20,435 nucleotides of DNA from a bacterium (GTDB taxonomy: Bacteria > SAR324 > NAC60-12), in assembly GCA_965233585.1 (NCBI GenBank), contig CBDDTI010000012.1, positions 1 through 20,435 of the forward strand, given 5' to 3'. The notes under the pieces were generated by a model that saw nothing but the letters and a program-made list of their open reading frames with translations, searched no databases and was not told where the DNA came from. Both the position numbers and the translations under genes were made by a program. The number at the start of each line of letters is the position of its first letter. Position 1 is the stretch's first letter. Below are positions 1 through 20,435 of the stretch, piece by piece.

Positions 1-1250
1 CAAACAATTTTGATTCTATTCAGGTTGGCAGTAGACTGAACATAAGATGTCCGCTGCCCTGACCTTTGCCCGCTAAAGTTGTGGAAGGGCTGTGTATTTT
101 CATATTGTCTCCATTGTCTCCATTCAATATATTTTTCAGAGGGGTTGGTGGAATTGATCCCAAGAATGAAGACAAGTTGAAACTAATATCCGCTTCAAAA
201 TATATTGTAGCGACGGGTGATCCCTGAAGAGTTTTGTGGTGGGCGAATGTCGTTGGAGATCTCAAGAGATGCAATTTGAAACAAAAAAAATCCAACGGAC
301 ACCATTTGAACCCAACGGAAGTTTGAATTTCGCATGCGCTGCTGGGACATGGCAAAGCAGAAAAGTGTCGAACTTAGAAGGCTGCCACAGTGTGACAGTG
401 TGACCCACTTTGCATTCGAATTACCATGAACGACGTTTGTTGAAAGATGCTGCATAGTACACAGGTGATGCAATTCAATCCGCAGAACTTCAGCATGTCC
501 CACATTTCGCAGCTGGAGAAGAGCAAGTACATGGTACGGCGGTACGGGGCCAAGAATTGACATAGTTATCATAGTTGCCTTTGCAAAAATCCACTGTGTG
601 ATCTGTGTGGCCAATGTTTGGGAATCACCATGTAGAGTATGGACGCAGTCTTAATGCAGAAGAGATTCAGTGTGGATCCATCCAACTCATTCCCTCTGAG
701 ATCCATCTGAGATTTCTATAGATTTCTCAGTTTCTTTCCACGCTTTGGACAAGTTGACAACAGATATTTGATCAACGGACCAGACCACATCCATTTGCAG
801 TGAAGACTTGCACTTGGTGTTTTTCGATTAAAGTTCTTGCCCTGCAGATTTCTGGCCAAAACAACACGGTTTCACCCTGTGAAAAAGATGCGGAGGAAAC
901 CCTCGTTTTCGAAGATCGTCCCAGCACCTGAAGGCCATGAGCCGCCGCTGGGCGAAGATCCAGCGGCGAAGTTTGAACGGATCCAACTTCTTTTGCAGTC
1001 GCTGCAGGAGGATGTAAAGTTTGAGCATGGTGATCGGATCAACTCAGTGGCTTGGAGCCCAGATGGGAAAAAGGTGGCCACGGCCTCTGAGGACAAAACC
1101 TGTCGCATCTTTGATGTGGAGGCCCAGATAGAGGATGCAAAGTTTGAGCATGGCGGTCTGGTCAACTCAGTGGCTTGGAGCCCAGATGGGAAAAAGGTGG
1201 CCACGGCCTCCAAGGACAAAACCTGTCGCATCTTTGATGTGGAGTCCCAG
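1..1250 (+). repeat. Segmental duplication, copy 1 (upstream region plus WD40 gene start)
   Basis: 1-740 aligns with 10115-10774 and 732-1250 aligns with 12841-13425, with small indels. Confidence 0.93.
465..560 (+). other. Possible terminal coding exon of an upstream gene (VMQFNPQNFSMSHISQLEKSKYMVRRYGAKN*)
   Basis: Preceded by a CAG|G acceptor and ends in TGA. It lies in the best-conserved, indel-free part of the duplicated flank (paralog 10549-10644). No family recognised. Confidence 0.3.
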
Positions 1251-3260
1251 ATAGAGGATGCAAAGTTTGAGCATGGCGATTGGGTCTACTCAGTGGCTTG
1301 GAGCCCAGATGGGAAAAAGGTGGCCACGGCCTCTCACGACAAAACCTGTCGCATCTTTGATGTGGAGTCTGAGAGAGAGGATGCAAAGTTTGAGCATGGC
1401 GATGAAGTCAACTCAGTGGCTTGGAGCCCAGATGGGAAAAAGGTGGCCACGGCCTCTGACGACAAAACCTGCCGCGTCTTTGATGTGGAGTCTGAGAGAG
1501 AGGATGCAAAGTTTGAGCATGGCGATTGGGTCTACTCAGTGGCTTGGAGCCCAGATGGGAAAAAGGTGGCCACGGCCTCTGACGACAAAACCTGCCGCAT
1601 CTTTGATGTGGAGTCTGAGAGAGAGGATGCAAAGTTTGAGCATGGCGATGAAGTCAACTCGGTGGCTTGGAGCCCAGATGGGAAAAAGGTGGCCACGGCC
1701 TCTGACGACAAAACCTGCCGCATCTTTGATGTGGAGTCCCAGATAGAGGATGCAAAGTTTGAGCATGGCGATTGGGTCTACTCAGTGGCTTGGAGCCCAG
1801 ATGGGAAAAAGGTGGCCACGGCCTCAAAGGATAAAACCTGTCGCATCTTTGATGTGGAGTCCCAGAGAGAGGATGCAAAGTTTGAGCATGGCGATAGGGT
1901 CAACTCAGTGGCTTGGAGCCCAGATGGGAAAAAGGTGGCCACGGCCTCTGAGGACAAAACCTGTCGCATCTTTGACGTGGAGTCCCAGAGAGAGGATGCA
2001 AAGTTTGAGCATGGCAGAGGGGTCAACTCAGTGGCTTGGAGCCCAGATGGGAAGAAGGTGGCCACGGCCTCTGAGGACAACACCTGTCGCATCTTTGACG
2101 TGGAGTCCCAGAGAGAGGATGCAAAGTTTGAGCATGGCAGAGGGGTCAACTCAGTGGCTTGGAGCCCAGATGGGACAAAGGTGGCCACAGCCTCTGAGGA
2201 CAAAACCTGCCGCATCTTTGATGTGGAGTCCCAGATAGAGGATGCAAAGTTTGAGCATGGCGATTGGGTCTACTCAGTGGCTTGGAGCCCAGATGGGAAA
2301 AAGGTGGCCACGGCCTCAAAGGATAAAACCTGTCGCATCTTTGATGTGGAGTCCCAGAGAGAGGATGCAAAGTTTGAGCATGGCGATTCGGTCATCTCAG
2401 TGGCTTGGAGCCCAGATGGGAAAAAGGTGGCCACGGCCTCTCACGGCAAAACCTGCCGCGTCTTTGATGTGGAGTCTGAGAGAGAGGATGCAAAGTTTGA
2501 GCATGGCGATTGGGTCTACTCAGTGGCTTGGAGCCCAGATGGGAAAAAGGTGGCCACGGCCTCTGACGACAAAACCTGCCGCATCTTTGATGTGGAGTCT
2601 GAGAGAGAGGATGCAAAGTTTGAGCATGGCAGAGGGGTCAACTCAGTGGCTTGGAGCCCAGATGGGAAAAAGGTGGCCACGGCCTCTGACGACAAAACCT
2701 GTCGCATCTTTGATGTGGAGTCCCAGAGAGAGGATGCAAAGTTTGAGCATGGCAGAGGGGTCAACTCAGTGGCTTGGAGCCCAGATGGGAAAAAGGTGGC
2801 CACGGCCTCTGACGACAAAACCTGTCGCATCTTTGATGTGGAGTCCCAGAGAGAGGATGCAAAGTTTGAGCATGGCGATAGGGTCAACTCAGTGGCTTGG
2901 AGCCCAGATGGGAAAGAGGTGGCCACGGCCTCTTACGACAAAACCTGTCGCATCTTTGATGTGGAGTCCCAGATAGAGGATGCAAAGTTTGAGCATGGCG
3001 ATAGGGTATTCTCAGTGGCTTGGAGCCCAGATGGGAAAAAGGTGGCCACGGCCTCTTACGACAAAACCTCTCGCATCTTTGATGTGGAGTCCCAGAGAGA
3101 GGATGCAAAGTTTGCGCATGGCGATTGGGTCATCTCAGTGGCTTGGAGCCCAGATGGGAAAAAGGTGGCCACGGCCTCAAAGGACAAAACCTGTCGCATC
3201 TGGTCCTACTGGCAACAGCCGCTGTCTTATACATCTATCTTTTGGAGGTCTTTTGATTAG
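888..3260 (+). CDS. N-terminal WD40 beta-propeller part (18 x 41-aa repeats) of a WD40-TRP-like channel gene
   Basis: First ATG at 888 (MRRKPSF...); the ORF track starts at a TTG at 837. Repeat consensus EDAKFEHGxxVxSVAWSPDGKKVATASxDKTCRIFDVESQR is a textbook WD40 repeat. Ends at TAG 3258-3260, after which the same frame stays open. Confidence 0.92.
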   Translation: MRRKPSFSKIVPAPEGHEPPLGEDPAAKFERIQLLLQSLQEDVKFEHGDRINSVAWSPDGKKVATASEDKTCRIFDVEAQIEDAKFEHGGLVNSVAWSPDGKKVATASKDKTCRIFDVESQIEDAKFEHGDWVYSVAWSPDGKKVATASHDKTCRIFDVESEREDAKFEHGDEVNSVAWSPDGKKVATASDDKTCRVFDVESEREDAKFEHGDWVYSVAWSPDGKKVATASDDKTCRIFDVESEREDAKFEHGDEVNSVAWSPDGKKVATASDDKTCRIFDVESQIEDAKFEHGDWVYSVAWSPDGKKVATASKDKTCRIFDVESQREDAKFEHGDRVNSVAWSPDGKKVATASEDKTCRIFDVESQREDAKFEHGRGVNSVAWSPDGKKVATASEDNTCRIFDVESQREDAKFEHGRGVNSVAWSPDGTKVATASEDKTCRIFDVESQIEDAKFEHGDWVYSVAWSPDGKKVATASKDKTCRIFDVESQREDAKFEHGDSVISVAWSPDGKKVATASHGKTCRVFDVESEREDAKFEHGDWVYSVAWSPDGKKVATASDDKTCRIFDVESEREDAKFEHGRGVNSVAWSPDGKKVATASDDKTCRIFDVESQREDAKFEHGRGVNSVAWSPDGKKVATASDDKTCRIFDVESQREDAKFEHGDRVNSVAWSPDGKEVATASYDKTCRIFDVESQIEDAKFEHGDRVFSVAWSPDGKKVATASYDKTSRIFDVESQREDAKFAHGDWVISVAWSPDGKKVATASKDKTCRIWSYWQQPLSYTSIFWRSFD
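1008..3203 (+). repeat. 18 tandem 123-bp coding repeats (WD40)
   Basis: GAGGATG(C/T)AAAGTTTG recurs every 123 bp (1008, 1131, 1254 ... 3099). Units are nearly identical outside a few codons. Confidence 0.97.
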
Positions 3261-5336
3261 CAGTCCATTGGTGTTCGCGATGAAATCCTCGATAGAATCT
3301 TGTTTAAAGGCAGGCTGAATGTGACTCTGTTCGGAGTCCTTTGCTATTGTCGGTGCTTCTACCTCAAAGGCTGGAACGTCCCAATGCCCCCACTCAAGGA
3401 GAAGGAGTTGCAGGAACTTGTGGAAGGGAAACGGCAGAAACCTGGGGACCTTTGGGAGCTTGTGTGCAGTGTAGATGCTGAAGGCATCAGTCCCATGAGC
3501 CTGGCAATTGAAAGTGGGAATGCGCAGTGGATGGCTGCATACATCAACAAAGACGCTTTGAGTTACTTGAGTTCTTGCCACGCAGGTGAGCAGAACTGGC
3601 TGAGCTACCAGACAAGGTGTAAGTACTTGATCAGTGCCAGCAGTGCCATTGCCAAATTGCTGTCAATCCAGGAGCTTGGCAGGTTGAGCGATCCACTGAG
3701 CGATCTGCTGAAGCTTTTCGTTTTGCCAGTGGAAAAAAATCCTTACAAATCCAATGGGCAGCCTGTGCTAAACCGGGGCAATGCAGCCATCCAGTTGCAC
3801 CCGCTCGTCTCTGAAACCATTTGGTGGCCACAAGGCTTTGAGGAATCCCAATTGCCCACGGATGCTGGATACAAGATCGAACTGGCAGCAGATATTTTTG
3901 TCCTGCCGCAAATTCTTTCGAGCGACTTTCTGGCACAGCTGTGCGAGCAGGATATCCCCGAGGATCCCGTGGCCGTATTCTCGTGCACTCCAATCATGGC
4001 CGCAACACAATTCAAGTGGCAAACATGGAAATGGTATTACTACGGTGAATGCATTGTGTACTCTCTTTTCCAATTTCTGTACATGTGGGTCACAGTGCAG
4101 GGCATTGATGCTTTGAGCACTTGCATCGATGCGGATGATGGAAATGAAACTGATGTGAGCGGTGAAGATGCAGCAGATGAAGCAGATTCCTCTTGCTTTC
4201 CAGCCCAAGTGCAGAAAGCGAAACTGGCAGTCACAAGTTTGGCGCTTTTGATTGTCCTCCGTGAGTGCAGAGAGCTGTATGCAGTGGCGCGTGAGCTGTA
4301 TCTACTGTATGCAGTGGCCGATGATCTCCCCGAGGCCAAAACAGTTCAAGGATCTAACCACTTGGCAAAACTTCACAAGTTGCACAACATAGCAGTTATA
4401 GCATTCAACAAGGCAATGAAGTTGTTTCTTTCTTGGTCCTTTACACAGATGACCATGCCAATCCTTGTCATTGTGAACGTTTGGTTCCAAGAGTTGCTGC
4501 CGTTGCAGCCCATTGTCGCATGCTGGTCCTGGCTCTATGTTCTGTACTTTCTTGGTGGGCTGGACACAACCGGGGCCTATGTTGGCATGCTGTGGGAAGT
4601 CATCAAAGATATGCGAAGTTTCTCTGTAGTCCTTGTAGTTGTGATTCTTGGACTTGGCCACGCATTCTCTTTGGCAGCCCACAACAGAGACACTTGGAAT
4701 CAGCTCCAGCGGGTATACCGCATGGGCATCATGGGTGACTTTGAAGTCGACGATTATAATGTGGATGGCTCAGACCTGGAACAGCATCATATGCTTTACC
4801 TTTTCTTCATTTTGATCACAGTGTCCATCACCGTCTCCATGCTGAACTTACTCATTGCTGTAATCTCTGACACTTACGATCGAGTTAATGAAAACATGAT
4901 ATCACGGCTGAATTGGGCAAAGGCATCCCGGATTGCCGAATTGGAACGAACCTACGGAAAACGCCGCATGTGTGGCTTCTTGATGATCCTTCAACCAGCT
5001 CATGGCTCGGACACAGCAGGTTGGCAAGGAACAGTTGCAACAATTCCAAAGAGAACTCATCAAATCCTACAAGGAGAGCTGAAGGACGTCAAAGATGCGA
5101 TTCCAAAGACCCATGAAATCCTGCACAGAGAGCTGGAAGACGTCAAAGGAGAGCTGAAAGCAGAGCTGAAAGATGTGAAAGATGCGCAAGGAGAGCTGAA
5201 AGGAGAACTCAAAGAAGTTCACAAATTCCTGGAAGACCTTTCAGACAAATTCAACGCCAACGCTGGGTCATCTGGATTCAGAAGGAATGAAGCTCCTGCC
5301 GCAGAGGACATGTTCGACGACGTAATTTTGGAGTAA
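3261..5336 (+). CDS. TRP-like (TRPA/TRPV-type) 6-TM cation channel domain with ankyrin-like remnant and C-terminal coiled coil; in-frame continuation of the WD40 ORF
   Basis: Ankyrin-like DAEGISPMSLAIESGNAQWMAAYI, pre-S1 P..AATQFKW and six hydrophobic segments. S4-S5 linker TGAYVGMLWEVIKDM, S5 ending LGHAFSL, pore YRMGIMGDFEVDDY, S6 MLNLLIAVISDTYDRV, TRP-helix-like WAKASRIAELE, and heptads ELKDVK. No stop between 3261 and the TTG at 3300. Confidence 0.88.
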   Translation, partial: QSIGVRDEILDRILFKGRLNVTLFGVLCYCRCFYLKGWNVPMPPLKEKELQELVEGKRQKPGDLWELVCSVDAEGISPMSLAIESGNAQWMAAYINKDALSYLSSCHAGEQNWLSYQTRCKYLISASSAIAKLLSIQELGRLSDPLSDLLKLFVLPVEKNPYKSNGQPVLNRGNAAIQLHPLVSETIWWPQGFEESQLPTDAGYKIELAADIFVLPQILSSDFLAQLCEQDIPEDPVAVFSCTPIMAATQFKWQTWKWYYYGECIVYSLFQFLYMWVTVQGIDALSTCIDADDGNETDVSGEDAADEADSSCFPAQVQKAKLAVTSLALLIVLRECRELYAVARELYLLYAVADDLPEAKTVQGSNHLAKLHKLHNIAVIAFNKAMKLFLSWSFTQMTMPILVIVNVWFQELLPLQPIVACWSWLYVLYFLGGLDTTGAYVGMLWEVIKDMRSFSVVLVVVILGLGHAFSLAAHNRDTWNQLQRVYRMGIMGDFEVDDYNVDGSDLEQHHMLYLFFILITVSITVSMLNLLIAVISDTYDRVNENMISRLNWAKASRIAELERTYGKRRMCGFLMILQPAHGSDTAGWQGTVATIPKRTHQILQGELKDVKDAIPKTHEILHRELEDVKGELKAELKDVKDAQGELKGELKEVHKFLEDLSDKFNANAGSSGFRRNEAPAAEDMFDDVILE

Positions 5337-5510
5337 AATGGCCGCACGATGCGCCAGCATACGCATGTTTGCAGCAACCTGTTTGCATCTTGTGTTCATA
5401 CAAATCAAGCAAAACCCTCTTGCTCTCACCGAAACTCCGAACTCTCATTGTTTCGTGCTGGTGAGGTAGGTATCTGCAGCAGAGTGATTGGGAGCGTTTT
5501 GATGTTGACC

Positions 5511-8500
5511 ATGGACCTTAAGAAGTTCGCGGCACGGATGCTCTTTATGTGTTGGGTTTCCCAGGTTGTGTGTGTTGGGTATGTGGGCAACTGCAAAAGC
5601 TGTGAGCCATCGTTAGTTCCAGTTTCCTCATATCCTCATTGACTTCGCACCGCTGCAGGAGGGTTGAGCATGGAGTAGTCACCTCCGATTCCTTCATTTT
5701 TCGACCTTGCATTGAATGTGACATCACCCAAACAAGGCACTACTTAGCACTACATACTTAGCAGACTTAGCACTTCTTGTTTGGGCCCTAGATGCATTGG
5801 CATCAAACTCAGCAATGCTTAGCAATGTTCAGCACATGAAAATCAAGTGCTTCAAAGTTGCATCATTGAGTTGGAGATACTTGGAAGATGCAGGGAATGC
5901 CTGAAAAACTCAATCTGGTCACCTGCAGATGGTGATGTTTCGGTTGGGGCAGCCTGGGGTGGGATGTTGAGGTGATGACGAGAAGTGCCAGCTACAGAGT
6001 CGAAAGACCTACTTCCGTGTTTGCTTCTGGAGCTCTCTCAAGCGCCCGGACAAGGTGGGAGCTTAAGGAACAGCCTGGCGCTCCGTTCGCGAATAGTTGA
6101 TGTTAAGAAATAGTTCTACGGAAAGTAGTCAGCAATTATCAAATTTATCAACAAATAATATGTTTGACAACGCTACGTATAATAAACACTACATAAGTTT
6201 AGATAACACTGTGTGTAATTATATATTTTTATATATAACACTACATTACACTAATGATGATTATAGAAATATACCAGAAATAAACTATATATATATACGT
6301 GATAATGATGATTATACAGCTAAAATAGATGATAATATCATCAGCCATGGCTTTCCTTTTCACCTTTTCGTCCTGAGCCGAGACTCAGGACGTTGTGATG
6401 AAAGTCGCTGGACAGTCCCTTGATCTGTTGAAGCGTCCGCCTGGCGAAGTCTTTGTCAAAAACCTTGAAAATCATCATGAATCCAATATGATCTAATTGT
6501 ATCTAATAATGATCCAATAATCCATTGCTCATCCATAATCATTAAAAGATAGTCATAAAATAATGATCCAATATTCATCCAAGAATAATTCAATAATAAT
6601 CCATTGTTCATTGTAGCAATGGTCATGCCATCAGCGAGTTTCCACGCATCGCTATCTTTGACCTGCAGCGGCACCCAGGGAGGCGGAAGCATCTCAGCAA
6701 CTTGCCGAAGGCTGTGCATCTCAAGGACGCGAGAAACGCGGTTGGGTTGGGGCAAAAACCTGTTTTGATGCTGATGAAAGATGATGAAAGATGGGTGGAT
6801 GATGAAAGATGATGAAAGTATGTTGTAAAAAAATGCATGTCAAGCTATACTTCCGAACTCTTCTGTACGGATTGGTGGATTGGCAGGACTGTCGCTTTTT
6901 GGGCTAAATGTTTTCCAGCCACTTGGAACTGCAGAACAGGTTGCGATTCAGCAGTGATAAATCCAGAGAGAACGCCTGTGGAACATGTGGAAACCATGGA
7001 AACCAAGGTGCTGCGTGAACTGGGAATCTGCACCAGCTAGCTGTGTCTTGTAGCCCACTGAGTTGTGCCGTTCAAGAAATCAATGGCCATTCCAGGATCC
7101 TAAATTGGAGGTACCTACCATATATAAGGCCTATGTAAGGCCTATGTAAGGGAATATCCCCACAAAATATGGCCTTATACGGTACAGTACCTCCAATTTA
7201 GAATCCTGGAATTCCTATTGAAGAAAAGCTTCTGGGAGAGAACCGCATTGTGACATGGAACGATCATGGAACAGATGATGTTGATGACACTGATGACATT
7301 CATGACATGATGATGTAGCTGCACATGATTTTGTGAAACGTGTGGCTTCCAAAGCTGAAAAGGTGTTGTTTGGTCAGAGACTCTCCATGGCGATTCTTCA
7401 CACATAAATCATACGGCATCACCAAACCCAGCGCGACGCGACGCGCCGACACGGTCTGCCCGTTCTAGGCATCTCCACTGAGCCGAGACATCGAAGACAT
7501 CACGGTTGAGGAGATGCTGACCGATGGGCTGTGGGGCAGAGATAAGAAATATGTGTCACAGTAAAATGATGCGGAATGTATATAGGACATTATAGGACTG
7601 TGTTAACCTATATCAATTCTGGGATCATCAGATGTTCGTTTTTAGCAAGTAGTGTATCTATTTATCTTGTTGATCCTCAATCGTCAAGTAACCAGGAGAC
7701 CGACTCCATTCGTGAGGTCAAGCAGGACATTAAGGCAAGAGTTGCCGAGGTGCCCCTGATGATGCGCGTTTCCGTTGGAATAAAAGGGGATGCCGAAAGA
7801 TCATAATATGACTTTTATGTCCATCCCATAATTCATAAAATCTATATAGCAAAAGAATCTATGTAGATATCTATAGAGATATCTTTGGAGATATCTAAAT
7901 CTTACCCAATATACCCTTGAATGTCAATGAAACATTCTTGCTATGAAACATGAAGTGAAACAGTTAGCCAGGTTCCATCCCCAGCAGGGAATCTGACAGG
8001 CTGACGAGCCCCTCTTTTACAACGGTGTAGAGCTGGCAGACGAAGATGCCACCCTGCTGGAGTACAACATCGCCGGCTCCCGAGTTTCCAACGGCAAATG
8101 ATGCTTGCCATGGGTTCTTGAAATATGGGAACATCGGGAACCCCAAATCCTAACATTTAGTGATTTTAGTGGCGATTTCATGGGCTTCCCCAATGGTTTT
8201 TTGGTAGTTGTGGTAAAACCATAGAAAACCCGGAAGTTTGAGAAACACAGATTGGTGGCAGATTGCTGATGTTCACCTGAGGTCCCCGACGACTGTCCTG
8301 GTGGTCCAGTGATCCATTTGGGCGGAGCGCCCTGGAGATCTTTTGATCTGGAGCCAGTGCCCCAGTGCCAGGGATATTTGATTCATGAGTCAATGATACA
8401 GAGATGATTAGATGTATGAAATGTATGAATAAATCAAAGGCGCAGGATTTTATATTCGATTCATCGATGATTCATTGATGGATATTCCATGTCAATCATG

Positions 8501-9864
8501 TTGTAAGCCATTGAAAATCCATGTTGGATCCAGGTGCCGGCTTCCAAGTGGAGGCCACATCAAGGCCAGAGCACAGCCGCACCGCATCGCATCGCACGGC
8601 GCCATCCCAACTTGGCTCTGTCGAATGCCTGTCGCGTCGAATGCCTTGTGGGCAGGAGCACGTCACAGCTGAAACCACTGTGGCCCAGTTGAAAGGACGA
8701 ATCACCTCTGAGGTTCCTTGTGATCAGCTTGTGATCAGATTGTGTCCAGAATTTGTTGAACTTCTTGAAATAGACTGTGATTATACAATTATTATATGTG
8801 GACTATAGGATTTGGATGGATTTGGATTATGATAAGCGGACACAACTATGATTGAATTATACTTGAAGTGATGGGACTATGATCGGACTATGATTGGACT
8901 ACTGGATTACTCTTCTGAAGTTTTCAGTCTTGATCACCAGTGTAAGCTCTGGATAAACAGGCTTGCAATGGACTTCACAATTGATTAGGCATATGGCGAC
9001 ATCATCCTATGCCGTGCCCCATCCTGGAGACAGAGCCCCAAAGGATCCCAGAAGAACTTTCCGATTCCATCCGATTTTTCCATCCAAGATTTACCATATT
9101 TCATCATTCATCTCCCTTCATCTCCCATGTGTGTTTAGACATGTGTTTTTCTTTCCAGATCCACAATTCGAAACGTTCTTTCCAGAACTTGTGTAATCTC
9201 CATTTTTCCAATCATCATCGAATATCCAAACATGTCCCATAAAAATCCAATCATTTTTCCAATCATCTAAAAGAATCTCCCAAAAATTTCATGTTGAGGT
9301 TATATATATATATATATCCACTACTTCTTGGGATATTTAGGACATTTCCCATGGTTTTTCCCACCATTTTTCCCATCCATTTGTTCCAGGTGGGCATCCC
9401 TTACCTCTGCATGAAGCTCTTCGCGGGCTCCGTGGAACTCCGCGATCCGCTGCCGCTGCAGCGCTACGGCCTGGCGGGGGACTCGGCAGTGCAGGTGATG
9501 ACCACCAGGCCTGGGGGGAAAGGTTGGGAAAACCATGGGAAAATGTGGGGAAAAGCCCAAAACTCATGGGAAAATGTGGGGAAAAACCATGAAACAACCA
9601 ATCTTGCTGATCATTTTTGTGTAATGAACTCTGTTGGAGTTTTGTCGTATCCTTCTTTATTCCACAAACAGATGGAAAATGAGGGTCGTTCATGGTTGTT
9701 CTCTATAGATGGTCAATTAAATGGCCAAATATCGAGTGGCAACTAGGAGAGGGTTGGGCTTGAGTGTGTGTCGTTTTGTTTTCGAATGAAGATGTTCAAT
9801 CACCGATGGAAATTCAGCTTGTGATCGCCAGGTCTCTATACACGGGGCCTGCCGCGTGAGCTGA
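5511..9864 (+). CDS. Multi-exon gene encoding a protein with two ubiquitin-like domains (manual model)
   Basis: Phase-consistent exons: 5511-5536, 5659-5708, 5972-6054, 6389-6443, 6679-6725, 7469-7510, 7696-7749, 8000-8071, 8282-8352, 8534-8564, 8656-8712, 9390-9494, 9832-9864. All acceptors are AG|G; donors are GT/GC/GA. Joined peptides align with the ubiquitin pattern. The first two exons and the last junction are uncertain. Confidence 0.7.
6679..8352 (+). CDS. Ubiquitin-like domain 1 (spliced from 5 exons)
   Basis: VHLK|ASPLSRDIEDITVE|ETDSIREVKQDIKARVAE|ADEPLFYNGVELADEDATLLEYNI|VPDDCPGGPVIHL, compared with ubiquitin [18 protein letters not shown]...[19 protein letters not shown]...TLHL. 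Confidence 0.7.
7080..7221. mobile_element. 142-bp MITE in an intron
   Basis: About 35-bp imperfect terminal inverted repeats (TCAATGGCCATTCCAGGATCCTAAATTGGAGGTAC ... GTACCTCCAATTTAGAATCCTGGAATTCCTATTGA), flanked by direct repeat AGAAA at 7075-7079 and 7222-7226. Confidence 0.85.
8342..9494 (+). CDS. Ubiquitin-like domain 2 (spliced from 4 exons)
   Basis: FDLE|CRLPSGGHIK|EHVTAETTVAQLKGRITSE|VGIPYLCMKLFAGSVELRDPLPLQRYGLAGDSAVQ aligns essentially without gaps to ubiquitin [68 protein letters not shown]. Confidence 0.8.
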
Positions 9865-10785
9865 TGATGCAAATCTTCCCCTGACAAAAAAGCAGAAGCT
9901 GTGGAGATTTGCAGAGCTGTTTTGATTGTTTCGTGAGTCACTTTGACCTTGAGACTGGACAGATACTATCACGGTGGCAGAAACTCATGTGATTTGCAAA
10001 CTTCCAATCTTTTGCACCTGACCGACTGGTCCCTAGTTTGCGAGTTTGCAGTTGTACTCATACAGACGTTGCAAGGTGAAAGAGAATCATGGCAACCCAT
10101 GGAACTTCTTAGCACAAACAGTTTTGATTCTGTTCAGGTTGGCAGTAGACTGAACATAAGATGTCCGCTGCCCTGACCTTTGCCCGCTAAAGTTGTGGAA
10201 GGGCTGTGTATTTTCATATTACGTATGTATTAATGTGCATCTCCATTCAATATATTTTTCAGAGGGGTTGGCGGATTTGATCCCTCATGAAGATAGTGGG
10301 CGAACGTCCGGGTTGGAGACAAGATGTCTTAAGACTCAGATGCGGTTGATCACCTGACTTGAGTTGTCAAGAGATGCAACTTGAAACAAATTTCCAACGG
10401 ACACCATTTGAACCCAACGGAAGTTTGAACTTCTCATGGGCGAGCGGACATGGCAAAGCAGCAACTTCGAAGGCTGCCACAGTGTGACACGCTTGGCATT
10501 CGAATTACCATGAACGACGTATGTTGAAAGATGCTGCATAGTACACAGGTGATGCAATTCAATCCGCAGAACTTCAGCATGTCCCACATTTCGCAGCTGG
10601 AGAAGAGCAAGTGCATGGTACGGCGGTACGGGGCCAAGGATTGACATAGTTATCATAGTTGCCTTTGCAAAAATCCACTGTGTGATCTGTGTGGCCAATG
10701 TTTGGGAATCACCATGTAGAGTGTGGATGACTGACCCTCCGAGATTCATCTGAGATTTCTCATTTTCTTTCCATGGATATATTGC

Positions 10786-10930
10786 GATTCAGAAACTTTC
10801 CCCGATTCAGAAACTCCAAGGATTCAAGAAACTCCTGGTTGTCCCGATTCAGAAACTCCAGTGTGTCCCGATTCAGAAACTCCGGGGTTTCCCCGATTCA
10901 GAAACTCCAGGTTGCCCCGATTCAGAAACC
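10786..10930 (+). repeat. Subterminal tandem motif (CC)GATTCAGAAACTCC, about 7 copies
   Basis: Copies at about 10786, 10804, 10822, 10846, 10870, 10895 and 10919. Degenerate inverted copies occur at about 12766, 12790 and 12818. Confidence 0.9.
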
Positions 10931-12755
10931 CCTACATGCAATATCAGTCCTCAATGCAAATCCTTCCCTTTCAAAGAGTTCTTGTCACGATTGCAAGTCA
11001 TTTCTTAAACTTAATCATCATTTTCAAAAATTTCCCCCCCAAAGCCCTACATGCAATGGTATTCCTCAATGCACATCCCTCCCTTTGATAGAGTTCTTGT
11101 CATGATGGCAAGTCATTTTCTAAACTTCCCTCCCCAAAGCCCTACATGCAATGGTATTCCTCAATGCAAATCCCTCCCTTTGATAGAGTCCTTGTCACGA
11201 TTGCAAGTTATTTTCTAAACTTCCCCCCCAAAACCCTACAAGCAATAGTAGTCCTCAATGCAAATCCTTCCCTTTCAAAGAGTTCTTGTCACGATTGCAA
11301 GTCATTTTCTAAACTTCCCCCCTCAAAGCCTACATGCAATGGTATTCCTTAATGCGCATCCTTCCCTTTCATAGAGTTCTTGTCACGATGGCAAGTCATT
11401 TTCAAAACTTCCCCCCCCAAAACCCTACATGCAATAGTAGCCCGCAATGCAAATCCTTGCCTTTCAAAGAGTTCTTGTCACGATTGCAAGTCATTTTCTA
11501 AACTTATCCCCCCCAAAGCCCTACATGCAATGGTATTCCTGAATGCACACCCTTCCCTTTCATACAGTTCTTGTCACGACTGCAAGTCATTTTCTAAACT
11601 TCCCTCCCCAAAGCCCTACATGCAATGGTATTCCTCAATGCAAATCCCTCCCTTTGATAGAGTCCTTGTCACGATTGCAAGTTATTTTCTAAACTTCCTC
11701 CCCCCAAAACCCTACATGCAATAGTAGTCCTCAATGCAAATCCTTCCCTTTCAAAGAGTTCTTGTCACGATTGCAAGTCATTTTCTAAACTCCCCCCCCC
11801 AAAGCCCTCCATGCAATCGTAATCCTCAATGCAAATCCCTCCCTTTCATACAGTTCTTGTCACGATTGCATGTCATTTTCTAAACTTCCCCCCCCCCAAA
11901 ACCCTACATGCAATAGTAGCCCGCAATGCAAATTCTTCCCTTTCAAAGAGTTCTTGTCACGATTGCAAGTCATTTTCTAAACTTATCCCCCCCCAAAGCC
12001 CTACATGCAATGGTATTCCTGAATGCACACCCTTCCCTTTCATACAGTTCTTGTCACGACTGCAAGTCATTTTCTAAACTTCCCTCCCCAAAGCCCTACA
12101 TGCAATGGTATTCCTCAATGCAAATCCCTCCCTTTGATAGAGTCCTTGTCACGATTGCAAGTTATTTTCTAAACTTCCTCCCCCCAAAACCCTACATGCA
12201 ATAGTAGTCCTCAATGCACATCCCTCCCTTTGATAGAGTTCTTGTCACGATGGCAAGTCATTTTCTAAACTTCCCCCCCAAAACCCTACACATGCAATAG
12301 TAGCCCTCAATGCAAATCCTTCCCTTTCATAGAATTCTTGTCACGATTGCAAGTCATTTTCAAAAATTTCCCCCCCCAAAGCCCTACATGCAATGGTATT
12401 CCTCAATGCCAATCCCTCCCTTTCATACAGTTCTTGTCACGATGGCTGGTCATTTTCTAAACTTCCCCCCCAAAGCCCTACATGCAATGTTATTCCTCAA
12501 TGCACATCCTTCCCTTTCATACAGTTCTTGTCACGATTGCATGTCATTTTCTAAACTTCCCCCCCCCAAAAACCCTACATGCAATAGTAGCCCGCAACGC
12601 AAATTCTTCCCTTTCAAAGAGTTCTTGTCACGATTGCAAGTCATTTTCTAAACTTCCCCCCAAAGCCCTACATGCAATGGTATTCCTCAATGCACATCCT
12701 TCCCTTTCAAAGAGTTCTTGTCACGATTGCAAGTTATTTTCTAAACTTCCCCCCC
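10931..12755 (+). repeat. About 96-bp minisatellite, about 19 copies, with a 480-bp higher-order period
   Basis: Unit CCTACATGCAATGGTATTCCTCAATGCAAATCCTTCCCTTTCAAAGAGTTCTTGTCACGATTGCAAGTCATTTTCTAAACTTCCCCCCCAAAGC. The stretch 11521-11730 recurs at 12001-12210. Confidence 0.95.
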
Positions 12756-13041
12756 TTGCATGAGAGTTTCCGCATCAGTATGTCAGTACAGTTTCCAAAA
12801 CCGGGCAGCTAAGACGAAGTTTCCGAATCCGACGTTGGCCTTCTTTCCATCCTTTTGACAAGTTGACAACAGAAATTCGACCAACGGACCAAGCAAACCT
12901 ACGAAGAAAGAAGACATCAAGACCACATTCATTTGCAGTAAAGCCATACACTTCATGTTCTTCGATTAAAATTCTCGCCTTGCCCTGCAGATGCCCTGCA
13001 GATTTCTGGCCAAAACAACACGGTTTCACCCTGTGAAAAAG

Positions 13042-13970
13042 ATGCGGAGCAAACCCTCGTTCTCCAAGATCGTCCCAGCACCTGAAGGCCATGAGCCGCC
13101 GGGCAAAGATCCACCGCCGCCGCTGGGCGAAGATCCAGCGGCGAAGTTTGAACGGATCCAACTTCTTTTGCAGTCGCTGCAGGAGGATGTAAAGTTTGAG
13201 CATGGTGATCGGATCAACTCAGTGGCTTGGAGCCCAGATGGGAAAAAGGTGGCCACGGCCTCTGAGGACAAAACCTGTCGCATCTTTGATGTGGAGGCCC
13301 AGATAGAGGATGCAAAGTTTGAGCATGGCGGTCTGGTCAACTCAGTGGCTTGGAGCCCAGATGGGAAAAAGGTGGCCACGGCCTCCAAGGACAAAACCTG
13401 TCGCATCTTTGATGTGGAGTCCCAGAGAGAGGATGCAAAGTTTGAGCATGGCGGTCTTGTCAACTCAGTGGCTTGGAGCCCAGATGGGAAAAAGGTGGCC
13501 ACGGCCTCCAAGGACAAAACCTGTTGCATCTTTGATGTGGAGTCTGAGAGAGAGGATGCAAAGTTTGAGCATGGCGGTCTGGTCAACTCAGTGGCTTGGA
13601 GCCCAGATGGGAAAAAGGTGGCCACGGCCTCCAGGGACAAAACCTGTCGCATCTTTGATGTGGAGTCCCAGAGAGAGGATGCAAAGTTTGAGCATAGTGA
13701 TGAGGTATATGAGGTCAGGTCAGTGGCTTGGAGCCCAGATGGGAAGAAGGTGGCCACGGCCTCTACTAACGACAGAACCTGTTGCATCTTTGATGTGGAG
13801 TCCCAGAGAGAGGATGCAAAGTTTGAGCATGGCCATGCGGTCATCGGAGTGGCTTGGAGCCCAGATGGGAAAAAGGTGGCCACGGCCTCCAAGGACAAAA
13901 CCTGTCGCATCTTTGATGTGGAGTCCCAGATAGAGGATGCAAAGTTTGAGCATGGGGATACGGTCTGGTC
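13042..13970 (+). pseudogene. Second WD40-repeat gene copy, truncated within repeat 7
   Basis: Paralogous N-terminus (MRSKPSFSK...) and 6 complete repeats from 13183. Homology stops at HGDTVWS (13970) and the frame runs into low-complexity DNA to a stop at 14145. No channel part is present in the window. Confidence 0.8.
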
Positions 13971-16900
13971 CAGGAAGCGTTCGAGGGAATTGGTTCCTGG
14001 ATTTGGCAGACTATTATTACTTTTTTTTTCCTGGGGGGGGTGGCAGACTATTATTACTTTTTTTTTTCTCTGGGGTGGGGGGGGCCTTATGATTATTATT
14101 TTTTTAATTCCTTTCTTGTCCTTTCCGGGATCGCCACTAATTTAGTCTACGGAAGCTTTTTCGTGCATTGAAATTAGTCTTGTGAGGCTTTCCTGTCCTT
14201 TCCCCTAGACTAACTATATATGCAAAAAAAAAGTCCCCTAGACTAAATATATCTTCAAAAAACAATTCGTAGACTAAATATATATACCAAAAAAAATCCG
14301 TAGATTAAATATATACTAAAAACAAATCCCCTAGACTAAATATATTTTCAAAAAAAAAACCGTATACTAAATATATCTTCAAAAAAAATCCGTAGACTAA
14401 ATATATATTTAAAAAAAAACCGTAGACTAAATCTATCTTCAAAAAAAAATCCCTAGACTAAATATATCTGCAAAAAAAATTCCCCTAGACTACATATGTC
14501 TTCAAACAAAAATTCTCCAGACTAAATATATCTTCAAAAAAAATCCGTAGACTAAATATATATACAAAAAAAAATCCGTAGATTAAATATATACTAAAAA
14601 AAAACATAGACTAAATATATTTTCCAAAAAAAGCCCGTAGACTAAATATATATTCAAAACAAAATCTGTAGACTAAATATATCTTCAAAAAAAAATCCGT
14701 AGACTAAATATATATTCAAAAGAAATCCGTAGACTAAATATATATTAAACAAAAAACCGTAGACTAAATCTATCTTCAAAAAAAAATCCCTAGACTAAAT
14801 ATATCTGTTAAAAAAAATTCTTAGACTAAATATATCTTTACAAAAAATCCCCTAGACTAAATATATCTTCAAAAAAAATCCGTAGACTAAATATATATTT
14901 TAAAAAAAACCGTAGACTAAATCTATCTTCAAAAAAAATCCCTAGACTAAATATATCTGCAAAAAAAATTCCCCTAGACTACATATGTCTTCAAACAAAA
15001 ATTCTCCAGACTAAATATATCTTCAAAAAAAAATCCGTAGACTAAATATATATACAAAAAAAATCCGTAGATTAAATATATACTAAAAAAAACATAGACT
15101 AAATATATTTTCCAAAAAAAGCCCGTAGACTAAATATATATTCAAAACAAAATCTGTAGACTAAATATATCTTCAAAAAAAAATCCGTAGACTAAATATA
15201 TATTCAAAAAAAATCCGTAGACTAAATATATATTAAACAAAAAACCGTAGACTAAATCTATCTTCAAAAAAAAATCCCTAGACTAAATATATCTGTTAAA
15301 AAATTTTCTTAGACTAAATATATCTTCACAAAAAATCCCCTAGACTAAATATATCTTCAAAAAAAATCCCCTAGACTAAGTATATCTTCCCAAAAAAAAT
15401 CCGAGACTAAATCTATATTCCAAAAAAAAACCTAGTAAAAAATTCAAGGACCTTCAAACATCGATTTTTTCCTTTTGAAAAGTGCTTCTTTTACAGGGTT
15501 TGGTGCCAAATCTGGACCCCTGGGCCTTTTGAAGCTCCAAAACCAATCTATATTCAAAAAAAAATCCACTAGACTAAATATATCTTCAAAAAAGTTCCCC
15601 TAGACTAAATATATCTGCAAAAAAAAATCTCCTAGACTACATATATCTTCAAAAAAAATTCTCCAGACTAAATATATCTTCAAAAAAAAAATCAGTAGAC
15701 TAAATATATATACAAAAAAAAATCCGTAGATTAAATATATACAAAAAAAAACCTAGACTAAATATATTTTCCAAAAAAAGCCCGTAGACTAAATATATAT
15801 TCAAAACAAAATCTGTAGACTAAATATATCTTCAAAAAAAATCCGTAGACTAAATATATATTCAAAAAAAATCCGTAGACTAAATATATATAAAAAAACC
15901 GTAGACTAAATATATATTCGAAAAAAAATCCGTAGACTAAAAAAAGTAATAATAATTGGCCGCCCCCCCCTCCGGTCTACGGGACGGGGGGGGTTCCACC
16001 AATTATTATTATTTCAAGTAATCGTAGTTGCTTCTCTCCCCATTATTATTACTTCAAGTAATAATAATTGCTCAAATCCCGGTTTCCCCCGATTATTATT
16101 ACTTGAAGTAATAATAATTGGTTGCCCCTCCCCCTCCCCCCCGAGAAAAAAAAAGTAATAATAATTGGCCGCCACCCCCCCCTCCGAAGAAAAAAAGTAA
16201 TAATAATTCAACACCCCCCGGCCCCCCTCACCGGTTTCTGCCTCTCACCCTAGACTAGATATATCTTCAAAAAAATTCCCCTAGACGAAATATATCTTCA
16301 AAAAAAATTCCCTAGACTAAATATATCTTCAAAAAAAATCCCCTAGACTAAATATATATTCAAAAAAAATCCCCTAGACTAAATATATCTTCAAGAAAAT
16401 TTCCCTAGACTAAATATATCTTCAAAAAATTCCCTAGACTAAATATATCTTCAAAAAAAGTCCCCTAGACTAAATATAGCTCCAAAAAAAATTCCCTAGG
16501 CTAAATATATCTTCAAAAAAATTGTCCTAGACTAAGTATATCTTGAAAAAAATCCCTAGACTAAATATATCTTTTAAAAAAATTCCCTAGACTAAATATA
16601 TCTTCAAAAAAAATCCCTGGACTAAATATATCTTCAAAAAAAAATCCCTAGACTAAATATATCTTCAAAAAAAATCCCTAGACTAAATATATCTTCAAAA
16701 AAATTCCCTAGACTAATTATATCTTCAAAAAAAACTTGCATACAAAAAATCAAACTTTCGAGGGCCTTCAAAAATCGATTTTTTCCTTTTAAAAAATGCT
16801 TGTTTTACAGGGTTTGGTGCCAAATCTGGACCCCTGGGCCTTTTGAAGCTCCAAAATCAAAATATATCCAAAAAAAAATCACCTAGACTAAATATATCTT

Positions 16901-19900
16901 CAAGAAAAGTTCCCCTAAACTAAATATATCTTCAAAAAAAATATCCCTAGACTAAATATATATACAAAAAAAATCCCCTAGACTAAATATATCTTCAAAA
17001 AAATTCCCTAGACTAAATATATCTTCAAAAAAAAATCCCTAGACTAAATATAGATTCAAAACAAAATCCGTAGACTAAATATATATTCAAAACAAAATCC
17101 TTAGACTAAATATATCTTCAAAAAAAATCCGCTAGACTAAATATATATTCAAAAAAAATCCGCTAGACTAAATATATCTTCACAAAAAAATCCGTAGACT
17201 AAAAAAAGTAATACTAATTGGCCGCCCCCCCCCCTCCGAAGAAAAAAAGTAATAATAATTCAACACCCCCCGGCCCCCATCACCCGTTCCGGGAGCTATT
17301 TCTGCCTTTCAATTCGTCTCCGGGAGCTTGTTCTGCCACTAATTTAGCTTACGGCAGCTTTTTCGTGCATTGAAATTCGTTTTCTGAGGCTTTCCTGTTC
17401 TTTCTGGGAATTATTTTTGCTCTGAATTTAGTCTCTGGGAGCTGTTTCTGCCATTAAATTAGTTGCGGGAGCCTTTTCTGCCACTAAATTCAAATTTCCG
17501 GGCGCTTTTTGTTGCCATCCAGGGCCTTTTCTGCCTTTAAAGTAGTCTCCGGGAGCTTTTTCTGCCACTAAAGTCCGCTTCCGAACGCATGTTGGTGATT
17601 CCGTGGGGGGAGGGGGTTTGTTCAATTATTATTATTTGAAATCATAATCGTTGCCCGCCCCCCCCCCGCGAAAAAAAAAGTAGTAATAATTGGCCGCTTC
17701 CCCCCTCCCCTTCGAAGAAAAAAAACAATTCAACACCCCCCGGCCCCCCTCACCGGTTCCGGGAGCTATTTTTGCCTCTCAAGTCGTTTCCGGGAGCTTG
17801 TTCTGTCACTGATTTCGTCTACGGCAGTTTTTTTGTGTATTGAAATTCGTTGTCCGGGATCGCCACTAATTTAGTCTACGGAAGCTTTTTCGTGCATTGA
17901 AATTAGTCTTGTGAGGCTTTCCTGTCCTTTCCGTTTTTTTTCCCCTAGACTAACTATATATGCAAAAAAAAAGTCCCCTAGACTAAATATATCTTCAAAA
18001 AACAATTCGTAGACTAAATATATATACCAAAAAAAATCCGTAGATTAAATATATACTAAAAAAAAACATAGACTAAATATATTTTCCAAAAAAAGCCCGT
18101 AGACTAAATATATATTCAAAACAAAATCTGTAGACTAAATATATCTTCAAAAAAAAATCCGTAGACTAAATATATATTCAAAAAAATCCGTAGACTAAAT
18201 ATATATTAAACAAAAAACCGTAGACTAAATCTATCTTCAAAAAAAAATCCCTAGACTAAATATATCTGTTAAAAAATTTTCTTAGACTAAATATATCTTC
18301 ACAAAAAATCCCCTAGACTAAATATATCTTCAAAAAAAATCCCCTAGACTAAGTATATCTTCCCAAAAAAAATCCGAGACTAAATCTATATTCCAAAAAA
18401 AAACCTAGTAAAAAATTCAAGGACCTTCAAACATCGATTTTTTCCTTTTGAAAAGTGCTTCTTTTACAGGGTTTGGTGCCAAATCTGGACCCCTGGGCCT
18501 TTTGAAGCTCCAAAACCAATCTATATTCAAAAAAAAATCCACTAGACTAAATATATCTTCAAAAAAGTTCCCCTAGACTAAATATATCTGCAAAAAAAAA
18601 TCTCCTAGACTACATATATCTTCAAAAAAAATTCTCCAGACTAAATATATCTTCAAAAAAAAAATCAGTAGACTAAATATATATACAAAAAAAAATCCGT
18701 AGATTAAATATATACAAAAAAAAACCTAGACTAAATATATTTTCCAAAAAAAGCCCGTAGACTAAATATATATTCAAAACAAAATCTGTAGACTAAATAT
18801 ATCTTCAAAAAAAAATCCGTAGACTAAATATATATTCAAAAAAAATCCGTAGACTAAATATATATAAAAAAAACCGTAGACTAAATATATATTCGAAAAA
18901 AAATCCGTAGACTAAAAAAAGTAATAATAATTGGCCGCCCCCCCCTCCGGTCTACGGGACGGGGGGGGTTCCACCAATTATTATTATTTCAAGTAATCGT
19001 AGTTGCTTCTCTCCCCATTATTATTACTTCAAGTAATAATAATTGCTCAAATCCCGGTTTCCCCCGATTATTATTACTTGAAGTAATAATAATTGGTTGC
19101 CCCTCCCCCTCCCCCCCGAGAAAAAAAAAGTAATAATAATTGGCCGCCACCCCCCCCTCCGAAGAAAAAAAGTAATAATAATTCAACACCCCCCGGCCCC
19201 CCTCACCGGTTTCTGCCTCTCACCCTAGACTAGATATATCTTCAAAAAAATTCCCCTAGACGAAATATATCTTCAAAAAAAATTCCCTAGACTAAATATA
19301 TCTTCAAAAAAAATCCCCTAGACTAAATATATATTCAAAAAAAATCCCCTAGACTAAATATATCTTCAAGAAAATTTCCCTAGACTAAATATATCTTCAA
19401 AAAATTCCCTAGACTAAATATATCTTCAAAAAAAGTCCCCTAGACTAAATATAGCTCCAAAAAAAATTCCCTAGGCTAAATATATCTTCAAAAAAATTGT
19501 CCTAGACTAAGTATATCTTGAAAAAAATCCCTAGACTAAATATATCTTTTAAAAAAATTCCCTAGACTAAATATATCTTCAAAAAAAATCCCTGGACTAA
19601 ATATATCTTCAAAAAAAAATCCCTAGACTAAATATATCTTTAAAAAAAATCCCTAGACTAAATATATCTTCAAAAAAATTCCCTAGACTAATTATATCTT
19701 CAAAAAAAACTTGCATACAAAAAATCAAACTTTCGAGGGCCTTCAAAAATCGATTTTTTCCTTTTAAAAAATGCTTGTTTTACAGGGTTTGGTGCCAAAT
19801 CTGGACCCCTGGGCCTTTTGAAGCTCCAAAATCAAAATATATCCAAAAAAAATCACCTAGACTAAATATATCTTCAAAAAAAGTTCCCCTAAACTAAATA

Positions 19901-20435
19901 TATCTTCAAAAAAAATATCCCTAGACTAAATATATATACAAAAAAAATCCCCTAGACTAAATATATCTTCAAAAAAATTCCCTAGACTAAATATATCTTC
20001 AAAAAAAAATCCCTAGACTAAATATAGATTCAAAACAAAATCCGTAGACTAAATATATATTCAAAACAAAATCCTTAGACTAAATATATCTTCAAAAAAA
20101 ATCCGCTAGACTAAATATATATTCAAAAAAAATCCGCTAGACTAAATATATCTTCACCAAAAAATCCGTAGACTAAAAAAAGTAATACTAATTGGCCGCC
20201 CCCCCCCCTCCGAAGAAAAAAAGTAATAATAATTCAACACCCCCCGGCCCCCGTCACCCGTTCCGGGAGCTATTTCTGCCTTTCAATTCGTCTCCGGGAG
20301 CTTGTTCTGCCACTAATTTAGCTTACGGCAGCTTTTTCGTGCATTGAAATTCGTTTTCTGAGGCTTTCCTGTTCTTTCTGGGAATTATTTTTGCTCTGAA
20401 TTTAGTCTCTGGGAGCTGTTTCTGCCATTAAATTA
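13971..20435. repeat. Complex AT-rich tandem array: about 29-31-bp satellite blocks plus spacers, arranged as 3.0-3.7-kb macro-repeats
   Basis: Monomer TAGACTAAATATATCTTCAAAAAAAATCC(C/G). The macro-unit restarts at 14124 and 17853 (TCCGGGATCGCCACTAATTTAGTCTACGG). Downstream landmarks recur at an offset of about 2974 bp. Confidence 0.95.

Follow-up and report, generated by a model that had tools for sequence, protein, structure and literature searches.

Near-identical WD40 arrays that evolve in concert, with diversifying positions on the top face of the propeller, are found in the fungal HNWD NOD-like receptors (NLRs), among them HET-E, HET-D and HET-R of Podospora. A closer relative in architecture is the TRPW channel, which is described in the cited parts of a preprint by Coyle et al. 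(bioRxiv 10.64898/2026.06.15.732144), in a companion preprint (bioRxiv 10.64898/2026.06.15.732245, June 2026) and in a later PNAS 2026 version of one of the two (PMC13663828) as a type I TRP channel marked by N-terminal WD40 repeats. Here we analyze contig CBDDTI010000012.1, a stretch of 20,435 nucleotides (nt) that we call the window, and the gene in it that places a WD40 array in front of a TRP-like channel. We hold with good confidence that the window carries a TRPW-type gene of a dinoflagellate, whose multi-propeller array is specific to its clade, evolves in concert and varies at hotspots, and that the locus itself is a decaying tandem pair.

According to the passages of the two preprints used here (bioRxiv 10.64898/2026.06.15.732144 and 10.64898/2026.06.15.732245), the choanoflagellate Salpingoeca rosetta has 17–18 TRPW members, and the cryo-electron microscopy structure of its TRPW1, at 2.37 Å, shows one 7-blade propeller inside the cell for each subunit, together with a TRP helix and a coiled coil at the C-terminus. 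The same passages place a bacterial-lipid agonist of TRPW1 in a vanilloid-like transmembrane pocket, report flagellar localisation, and record TRPW in euglenids, ciliates, diatoms and chlorophytes, with loss in animals. Highly-Repetitive (HR) WD40 proteins, the third point of reference, are reported from prokaryotes, fungi and protists in the portion of the survey drawn on here (Hu et al. 2017, PMC5587647). The preliminary description of the window, made from its letters, could not confirm that the joining of WD40 repeats to a channel was an undescribed architecture; it had in fact already been published as the TRPW family.

The array and the channel

One frame on the + strand runs from an ATG at 888 to a TAA at 5334–5336 and is interrupted by a TAG at 3258–3260, downstream of which 691 codons precede the TAA. 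The preliminary description had placed all parts in one frame; the same frame does reach the channel, but the TAG cuts it. The parts of this gene, copy 1 of two, are as follows.

888..1004, + strand: ATG and 39-codon N-terminal leader (MRRKPSFSKIVPAPEG...), from the translation; the leader is common to homologs P0010 and P0007 and to copy 2
1005..3218, + strand: array of 18 WD40 units of 123 nt, or 41 amino acids (aa), each (Tandem Repeats Finder, Pfam, repeat register, variation counts)
3258..3260, + strand: in-frame TAG between array and channel (translation, homolog alignment, run contigs)
3261..3665, + strand: junction, with a low-confidence hydrophobic helix (3315–3365) followed by ankyrin-like helix pairs (model residues 1–135)
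3696..3980, + strand: linker beta-sheet and pre-S1 helices, TRPV-like (model strands 154–213, helices 216–240, inside the TRPV-aligned range)
3987..4892, + strand: transmembrane domain S1–S6 with pore helix (profile, AlphaFold2 model, Foldseek, VIA-align, hydropathy)
4722–4754, + strand: filter-region motif MGIMGDFEVDD, after the pore helix
4839–4886, + strand: S6 motif MLNLLIAVISDTYDRV
4896..4955, + strand: TRP helix, containing RLNWAKASRIAELER (model helix 546–565; aligns with the TRP-helix region of 'Inactive' and TRPVs)
4977..5255, + strand: C-terminal beta-strand (4977–4997), then a long helix, putatively a coiled coil, with GELK-type repeats (model strand 573–579, helix 585–665)
5334..5336, + strand: TAA terminator of the channel frame (translation)

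In a HMMER scan of 1.84 billion representative proteins for homologs of the window protein, 1023 relatives were found at E≤0.001, of which 85 reached E≤1e-10 and 11 reached E≤1e-30. The best of them, P0010 (1363 aa, 92% identity), has the leader, about 16 repeats and the channel. WD40 array and channel also stand on one polypeptide in P0005 (1002 aa), P0002, P0007 and P0008, and at a metagenome locus of 57% identity (L003) one frame stays open across at least 6 repeats and on through the channel. These proteins bear out the earlier proposal of a WD40 array and a channel on one chain, with the proviso that their repeat counts (2 to 16) come from metagenome gene calls and may be truncated or collapsed. 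More distant relatives share about 22–40% identity over the transmembrane domain. In 13 of 20 long ones that were scanned with Pfam, WD40 or propeller domains lie upstream of Ion_trans or PKD_channel; one of the 20 has ankyrin in addition and one has ankyrin repeats only. A custom, less sensitive WD40 hidden Markov model was applied to the 30 proteins whose channel match is preceded by at least 450 residues, and it found at least 2 repeats in 15 of them. The P0001 call begins with MGKRWPRPLTT, which resembles a +1-frame reading of a WD40 unit. On this reading, there may be a frameshift in its array, some three repeats from the end, which would mean either another damaged copy or an assembly error.

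The array agrees with the 18 highly conserved WD40 repeats of the preliminary description. Tandem Repeats Finder (TRF) reported 17.8 copies of the 123-nt unit at 1008–3201 with 94% matches, the protein register gives 18 units of 41 aa over 1005–3218, and Pfam WD40 matches 18 stretches (E 5.9e-177). The mean pairwise identity of the first 17 units is 92.6% at the nt and 88.2% at the aa level. Identical blade types reappear at non-adjacent places in the array, as expected under unequal recombination. In the 39-aa leader, all that precedes the array, no signal peptide or other domain was found, and the 25 families listed of the 58 that Pfam returned over 888–3257 are all propeller families. The array had been said to lack a NACHT or NB-ARC domain, and with a 39-aa leader and WD40 throughout the rest there is indeed no room for one.

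The hypervariable codons of the 41-residue unit are 10, 11, 13 and 29, together with 1 and 41. Five codons (1, 10, 11, 13 and 29) account for 16 of the 26 minimal changes (p = 0.0006, 100,000 random allocations), which shows that the concentration of amino-acid variation in the array exceeds chance. The Nei-Gojobori ratio of nonsynonymous to synonymous differences (pN/pS) is 1.81 at these five codons, picked after their variability had been seen, and 0.20 at the other 36. In a pooled set of 44 repeats from five proteins of the ~90% clade, the entropy was 2.0–3.0 bits at positions 10, 11, 13 and 29, 0.7–1.2 bits at positions 1, 4, 31 and 41, and at most 0.42 at all others. The four most variable sites occur in 30 distinct combinations among the 44 repeats, and they are variable in the 57% clade too.

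To place these sites on a fold, we used the model of the intact homolog P0005, whose propeller has a predicted local distance difference test score (pLDDT) above 90; its nine repeats were modelled as eight D-A-B-C units plus one strand. Within a unit, strand D comprises residues 1–7, A 12–17, B 23–28 and C 32–37. Positions 10 and 11 therefore lie in the D-A loop, position 13 at the start of strand A and position 29 in the turn between B and C. In the established topology of WD40 propellers, these three elements form the top, ligand-binding face. The earlier claim of high repeat identity with a few hypervariable sites has held, and the sites fall at positions expected for the top face. The hotspot sites are among those named as variable in highly repetitive WD40 proteins in the cited portion of Hu et al. 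2017 (PMC5587647). Identity at a lag of 41 residues is 0.88 in P0005 and P0010 versus 0.11–0.32 in 23 distant long relatives; judged by this measure, the highly repetitive state of the array is limited to the close clade.

For the channel half, the family models gave scores below their cut-offs: the window protein scored 19.2 bits against Pfam Ion_trans (cut-off 25) and 40 bits against NCBIfam TIGR00870 'trp' (cut-off 499). A profile, A1, made from the channel part of the window and 43 relatives, matched the insect TRPV 'Inactive' in the PDB at 2.6e-53, TRPV3 at 8e-44, TRPV6 at 1e-42 and TRPA1 at 3.5e-38. The AlphaFold2 model of the channel part had a pLDDT of 79.9 and a predicted template-modelling score (pTM) of 0.75, and the best matches that Foldseek listed were TRPV entries throughout (E ~1e-7). 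VIA-align gave Z 20.5 with TRPV5 (model 91–582) and Z 20.1 with TRPV1 (model 25–582 against chain 252–749), the latter range covering the last ankyrin repeats, the linker sheet, pre-S1, S1–S6, the TRP helix and the C-terminal strand. S6 contains MLNLLIAVISDTY, in which N529, I532 and A533 are at least 90% conserved in A1, and the TRP helix of the model includes RLNWAKASRI. From profile and model, the case that the downstream part is a TRP-type, TRPV-like channel is strong, in line with the six-helix TRP-like pore proposed in the preliminary description.

Two further elements of that proposal stood in part. An ankyrin remnant had been noted upstream of the pore, and 2–3 helix pairs (model residues 47–135) do match the last ankyrin repeats of TRPV1 in structure, but Pfam found nothing in 3261–4300, ankyrin families included, even at E≤10. 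The junction is thus modelled as a short helical region that is ankyrin-like in structure only. As to the coiled coil, a long C-terminal helix (model residues 585–665) was predicted at a pLDDT of 55–80, which leaves the coiled coil putative; the coding region of this helix holds a 12-nt repeat at 5145–5214 (TRF). Contigs of the runs X6, X15 and X16 replace about 80 nt at 5251–5332 by an identical run of 36 other letters, a swap that points to a putative paralog with a different C-terminal tail. We also considered an extra transmembrane helix at 3315–3365, which would make the array extracellular, and rejected it: its mean Kyte-Doolittle hydropathy over 19 residues is below 1.2, compared with 2.3–2.5 for S5 and S6. 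With no signal peptide and a junction helix below threshold, the array is predicted to share the cytosolic side of the membrane with the TRPV-like linker.

Origin of the contig and structure of the locus

The window is an entire contig of a 12.0 Mb, 747-contig assembly that was filed as a prokaryote and has marker-gene scores of 92.5% completeness and 2.09% contamination. In this assembly, 46 of the 747 contigs (3.98 Mb) are dense, with at least 75% of their length in open reading frames (ORFs) of at least 100 aa; the remaining 701 (8.02 Mb) fall below this value. Among low-density contigs of up to 60 kb, the median share of length in such ORFs is 0.29. Eukaryotic DNA probably makes up about two thirds of this "bacterial" assembly, a share to which the marker-based contamination score (2.09%) is blind. 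The window outside the gene consists of 95-nt and 31-nt satellites and ORF-poor sequence; an ORF scan found no convincing ORF in 5337–10900. None of 1919 BLASTN matches connected the window contig with other contigs of the assembly. We rejected a bacterial origin because of the ORF density and the satellites and because the protein family is restricted to eukaryotes, and we conclude that the contig consists of eukaryotic DNA that was mistakenly placed in a bacterial assembly.

The 2.25-kb channel stretch is present in public runs from 14 studies; several of these runs are labelled coral metagenome and 6 are metatranscriptomic RNA libraries. One homolog of the window protein comes from EukProt, and we take the style of its identifier, on our own assumption, to be that of Symbiodiniaceae gene models. 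Animals are without the TRPW architecture according to the part of the TRPW preprint cited here (bioRxiv 10.64898/2026.06.15.732144). We read the contig as dinoflagellate-symbiont DNA because of its ORF density, its satellites, the absence of shared DNA, the coral and RNA runs, the EukProt homolog and the statement on animals. The most likely source is a coral-associated dinoflagellate (Symbiodiniaceae).

The locus contains a second, shorter version of the gene and extensive satellite DNA, as follows.

1..643, + strand: upstream region of copy 1, repeated upstream of copy 2 at 10115–10727 (self-BLASTN)
10926..12755, no strand assigned: about 18 copies of a 95-nt satellite, an insertion upstream of copy 2 (TRF, self-BLASTN)
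13042..13966, + strand: second gene copy, which shares the leader and has about 7 WD40 units, of which two contain indels (P0009, self-BLASTN, TRF)
14206..20177, no strand assigned: AT-rich 31-nt satellite blocks (TAGACTAAATATATCTTCAAAAAAAATCCG-like) closing the contig (TRF)

In the upstream region, 1–161 matches 10115–10284 at 90.6% and 256–643 matches 10361–10727 at 89.9% (self-BLASTN), and this repetition indicates a tandem duplication unit of about 10.1 kb. The genes themselves match over 838–1779 and 12992–13966 at 91.5%, and TRF counts 6.2 repeat copies in copy 2 at 13183–13955. The frame of copy 2 runs into the 31-nt satellite, and the contig holds no channel part for it. The 95-nt satellite is C-rich on the + strand with a strong negative GC skew, and at the corresponding place copy 1 has only about 195 nt; directly before the satellite lies a 24-nt tandem repeat of 4.5 copies (10821–10929). 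The 31-nt satellite is broken twice by one segment of about 1 kb with a 42-nt C-run/A-run repeat (16106–16219, 19081–19194). Each of the runs examined holds several variants at 90–99% identity, which could stem from paralogs or from different strains. The two gene copies form a tandem pair in birth and death, and both look defective.

The interrupted frame and the role of the array

A sense codon stands at the TAG site in 9/9 homologs that cover it: Trp in P0001, P0002, P0003, P0005, P0008 and P0010, and Leu in P0006, P0007 and L003 (57% clade). This indicates that no intron is present and that array and channel are normally fused in one protein. The TAG is covered with 0 differences by a 513-nt contig of run X1, which may be the window's own source, and by a 205-nt RNA-library contig of run X15 (3150–3354), a kind of contig that can contain DNA; the TAG is not an assembly error. 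Between P0001 and the window there are 3 residue differences, the TAG site among them, and the change must be very young because P0001 is otherwise almost identical to the window. The copy with the TAG is, as read from its codons, a null allele or a fresh pseudogene. With the TGG-to-TAG change in copy 1 and the satellite truncation of copy 2, the locus itself probably makes no fused receptor-channel. An intron around 3202–3369 was considered and rejected, since homologs read through with W at the TAG and RNA-library contigs are colinear with the DNA. One RNA-library contig of X15 joins 3207 to 3474 and skips 266 nt including the TAG. It is a single contig at the 90% likeness setting, has 46 letters on its shorter side, its skipped segment has non-canonical AC..TA ends and the frame is not kept; it is probably a paralog or a chimera and was not used as evidence.

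Two other readings of the TAG would leave the gene functional. If the stop were itself functional, the locus would make a soluble 790-aa WD40 array and, from a downstream ATG, a separate channel, the two perhaps associated non-covalently. The frames on both sides of the TAG are otherwise open, the independent RNA-library contig carries the TAG with 0 differences over 3150–3354, and two homolog gene calls, P0004 and P0003, come without an array. However, those array-less calls were made on metagenome contigs and begin inside the gene, at a GTG or ATG; an RNA-library contig is no proof of transcription when DNA can occur in such libraries; a sense codon stands at the site in 9/9 homologs; and the closeness of P0001, only 3 residues off with the TAG site included, speaks for a very recent change. 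We regard a two-protein gene as decidedly improbable. The TAG might instead be bypassed by A-to-G RNA editing (UAG to UGG) or by read-through, which would give the full 1482-residue protein. A single A-to-G change gives back the Trp seen in 6 homologs, and nuclear mRNA editing has been reported in Symbiodinium. Yet the only RNA-library contig listed across the TAG is identical to the DNA, and A-to-G differences number 24 in the DNA-type run X6 versus 23 and 26 in the RNA runs. These differences reflect paralogs, as they are equally frequent in both types of run, although contigs drop rare variants and partial editing could escape them. Rescue of the frame at the RNA level seems to us very improbable indeed, and a young nonsense copy is the reading we retain.

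In the intact homologs, by contrast with the damaged locus, the protein would form tetrameric, probably Ca2+-permeable cation channels, with propellers hanging in the cytosol as protein-binding platforms. The array would be homogenised and resized by unequal recombination or gene conversion, and four top-face positions per blade would diversify while the rest of the array is homogenised. The variation itself is observed; its consequence would be that each paralog has a different set of binding surfaces. Several points weigh against our overall reading of the window. The pN/pS contrast depends on the choice of codons described above, and surface loops are also the least constrained sites. The repeat counts of the homologs come from calls that begin at a GTG or ATG inside the gene, and arrays of this kind can be collapsed in short-read assembly; the metagenome scan gave only 3 related loci and the genome-contig scan found no relative. 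The full-length P0005 model has a pTM of 0.53, with a pLDDT below 50 at junction residues 336–408. WD40–TRP joining could have happened more than once, and our TRPW placement is one by architecture. The taxon call rests on run labels, on the style of one EukProt identifier and on a preprint statement about animals, and a search of the window for a dinoflagellate spliced-leader relic gave 0 matches at ≤3 mismatches.

The preliminary description had gone further and suggested, in analogy to the fungal HNWD NLRs, a one-component receptor for innate immunity or allorecognition with the hypervariable propeller as its ligand sensor: binding of a non-self protein to the array would open the channel and lead to Ca2+ influx or death. 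Much of the variation described above would suit such an analogy: it is focused on top-face positions 10, 11, 13 and 29 with high pN/pS, its concentration exceeds chance (p = 0.0006), 30 site combinations occur among the 44 pooled repeats, several variants at 90–99% identity are found per run, and the highly repetitive state is confined to the close clade. Tandem duplication with one nonsense and one truncated copy is a birth-and-death pattern, and Paoletti et al. reportedly found in 2007 that HET-E varies at almost identical repeat positions. On the other hand, the protein has no NACHT, death or effector domain, no experiment or genomic context ties the TRPW-like family to defence, and the hot codons were chosen a posteriori. 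Variable hotspots are, moreover, typical of highly repetitive WD40 proteins in general, according to the part of the HR WD40 survey cited (PMC5587647). In the cited parts of the TRPW work, the agonist of TRPW1 sits in the transmembrane pocket and not on the propeller, which is intracellular, and the authors propose a scaffolding or flagellar role for the propeller. An immune function for the array is speculative and unlikely.

A broader proposal, which we put forward as rather unlikely, is that coral-symbiont dinoflagellates keep a fast-evolving TRPW repertoire in which the arrays would serve as cytosolic recognition surfaces coupled to a Ca2+-permeable pore. The partners of such surfaces may be viral, bacterial or host-derived proteins, or strain-specific partners. 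If true, this would be a single-polypeptide counterpart of the NLRs that end in Ca2+ channel formation, relevant to symbiosis or defence. The host algae are those on which coral reefs depend, and Ca2+ signalling and partner recognition are central there.

Comparison with described systems

TRPV channels (TRPV1/2/3/5/6 and Inactive/Nanchung) gave the best sequence-profile and structural matches. They share with the window gene the linker sheet, pre-S1, S1–S6, an ...MGD... after the pore helix, an NLLIA-type S6, the TRP helix and the C-terminal strand. They differ in having a six-repeat ankyrin domain, whereas the window gene has a WD40 array and a long C-terminal helix, and identity to them is 12–20%.

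As in the HNWD NLRs, the WD40 repeats here are highly identical with a few hypervariable positions; unlike the HNWD NLRs, the window gene is without a HET effector and without a NACHT NTPase, and its output module is an ion channel. The HR WD40 proteins, as presented in the cited portion of Hu et al. 2017 (PMC5587647), resemble the array in their many repeats and in their diversity at predicted interaction hotspots. Their threshold of 0.7 compares with a mean aa identity of 0.88 (17 units) in the window, a value calculated in our own way and not by their measure. The word "channel" occurs 0 times in the main text of that survey (PMC5587647).

TRPW is the closest system in architecture. Like the window gene, its members combine WD40 repeats at the N-terminus with a type I TRP domain and also have a TRP helix and, at the C-terminus, a helix resembling a coiled coil; as a family TRPW is expanded, variable in repeat number, protist and not in animals. 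All structural features named for TRPW have predicted counterparts in the window gene, and we assign it to TRPW by architecture and not by phylogeny. The PDB entries 35WH and 35WI, which the preprint names, were absent among the PDB matches listed for the channel part. The ankyrin part is degenerate in the window gene, unlike in TRPW1. TRPW was first defined in 2026, and the clade described here offers a natural experiment on what the propeller binds and on whether it tunes gating. Our literature search found no description of such a hypervariable WD40 array on a channel or in Symbiodiniaceae. The part that is apparently new is therefore the array and not the fused architecture: TRPW1 has one 7-blade propeller of diverged repeats, whereas here there are 16–18 blades at ~88% identity with hypervariable hotspots.

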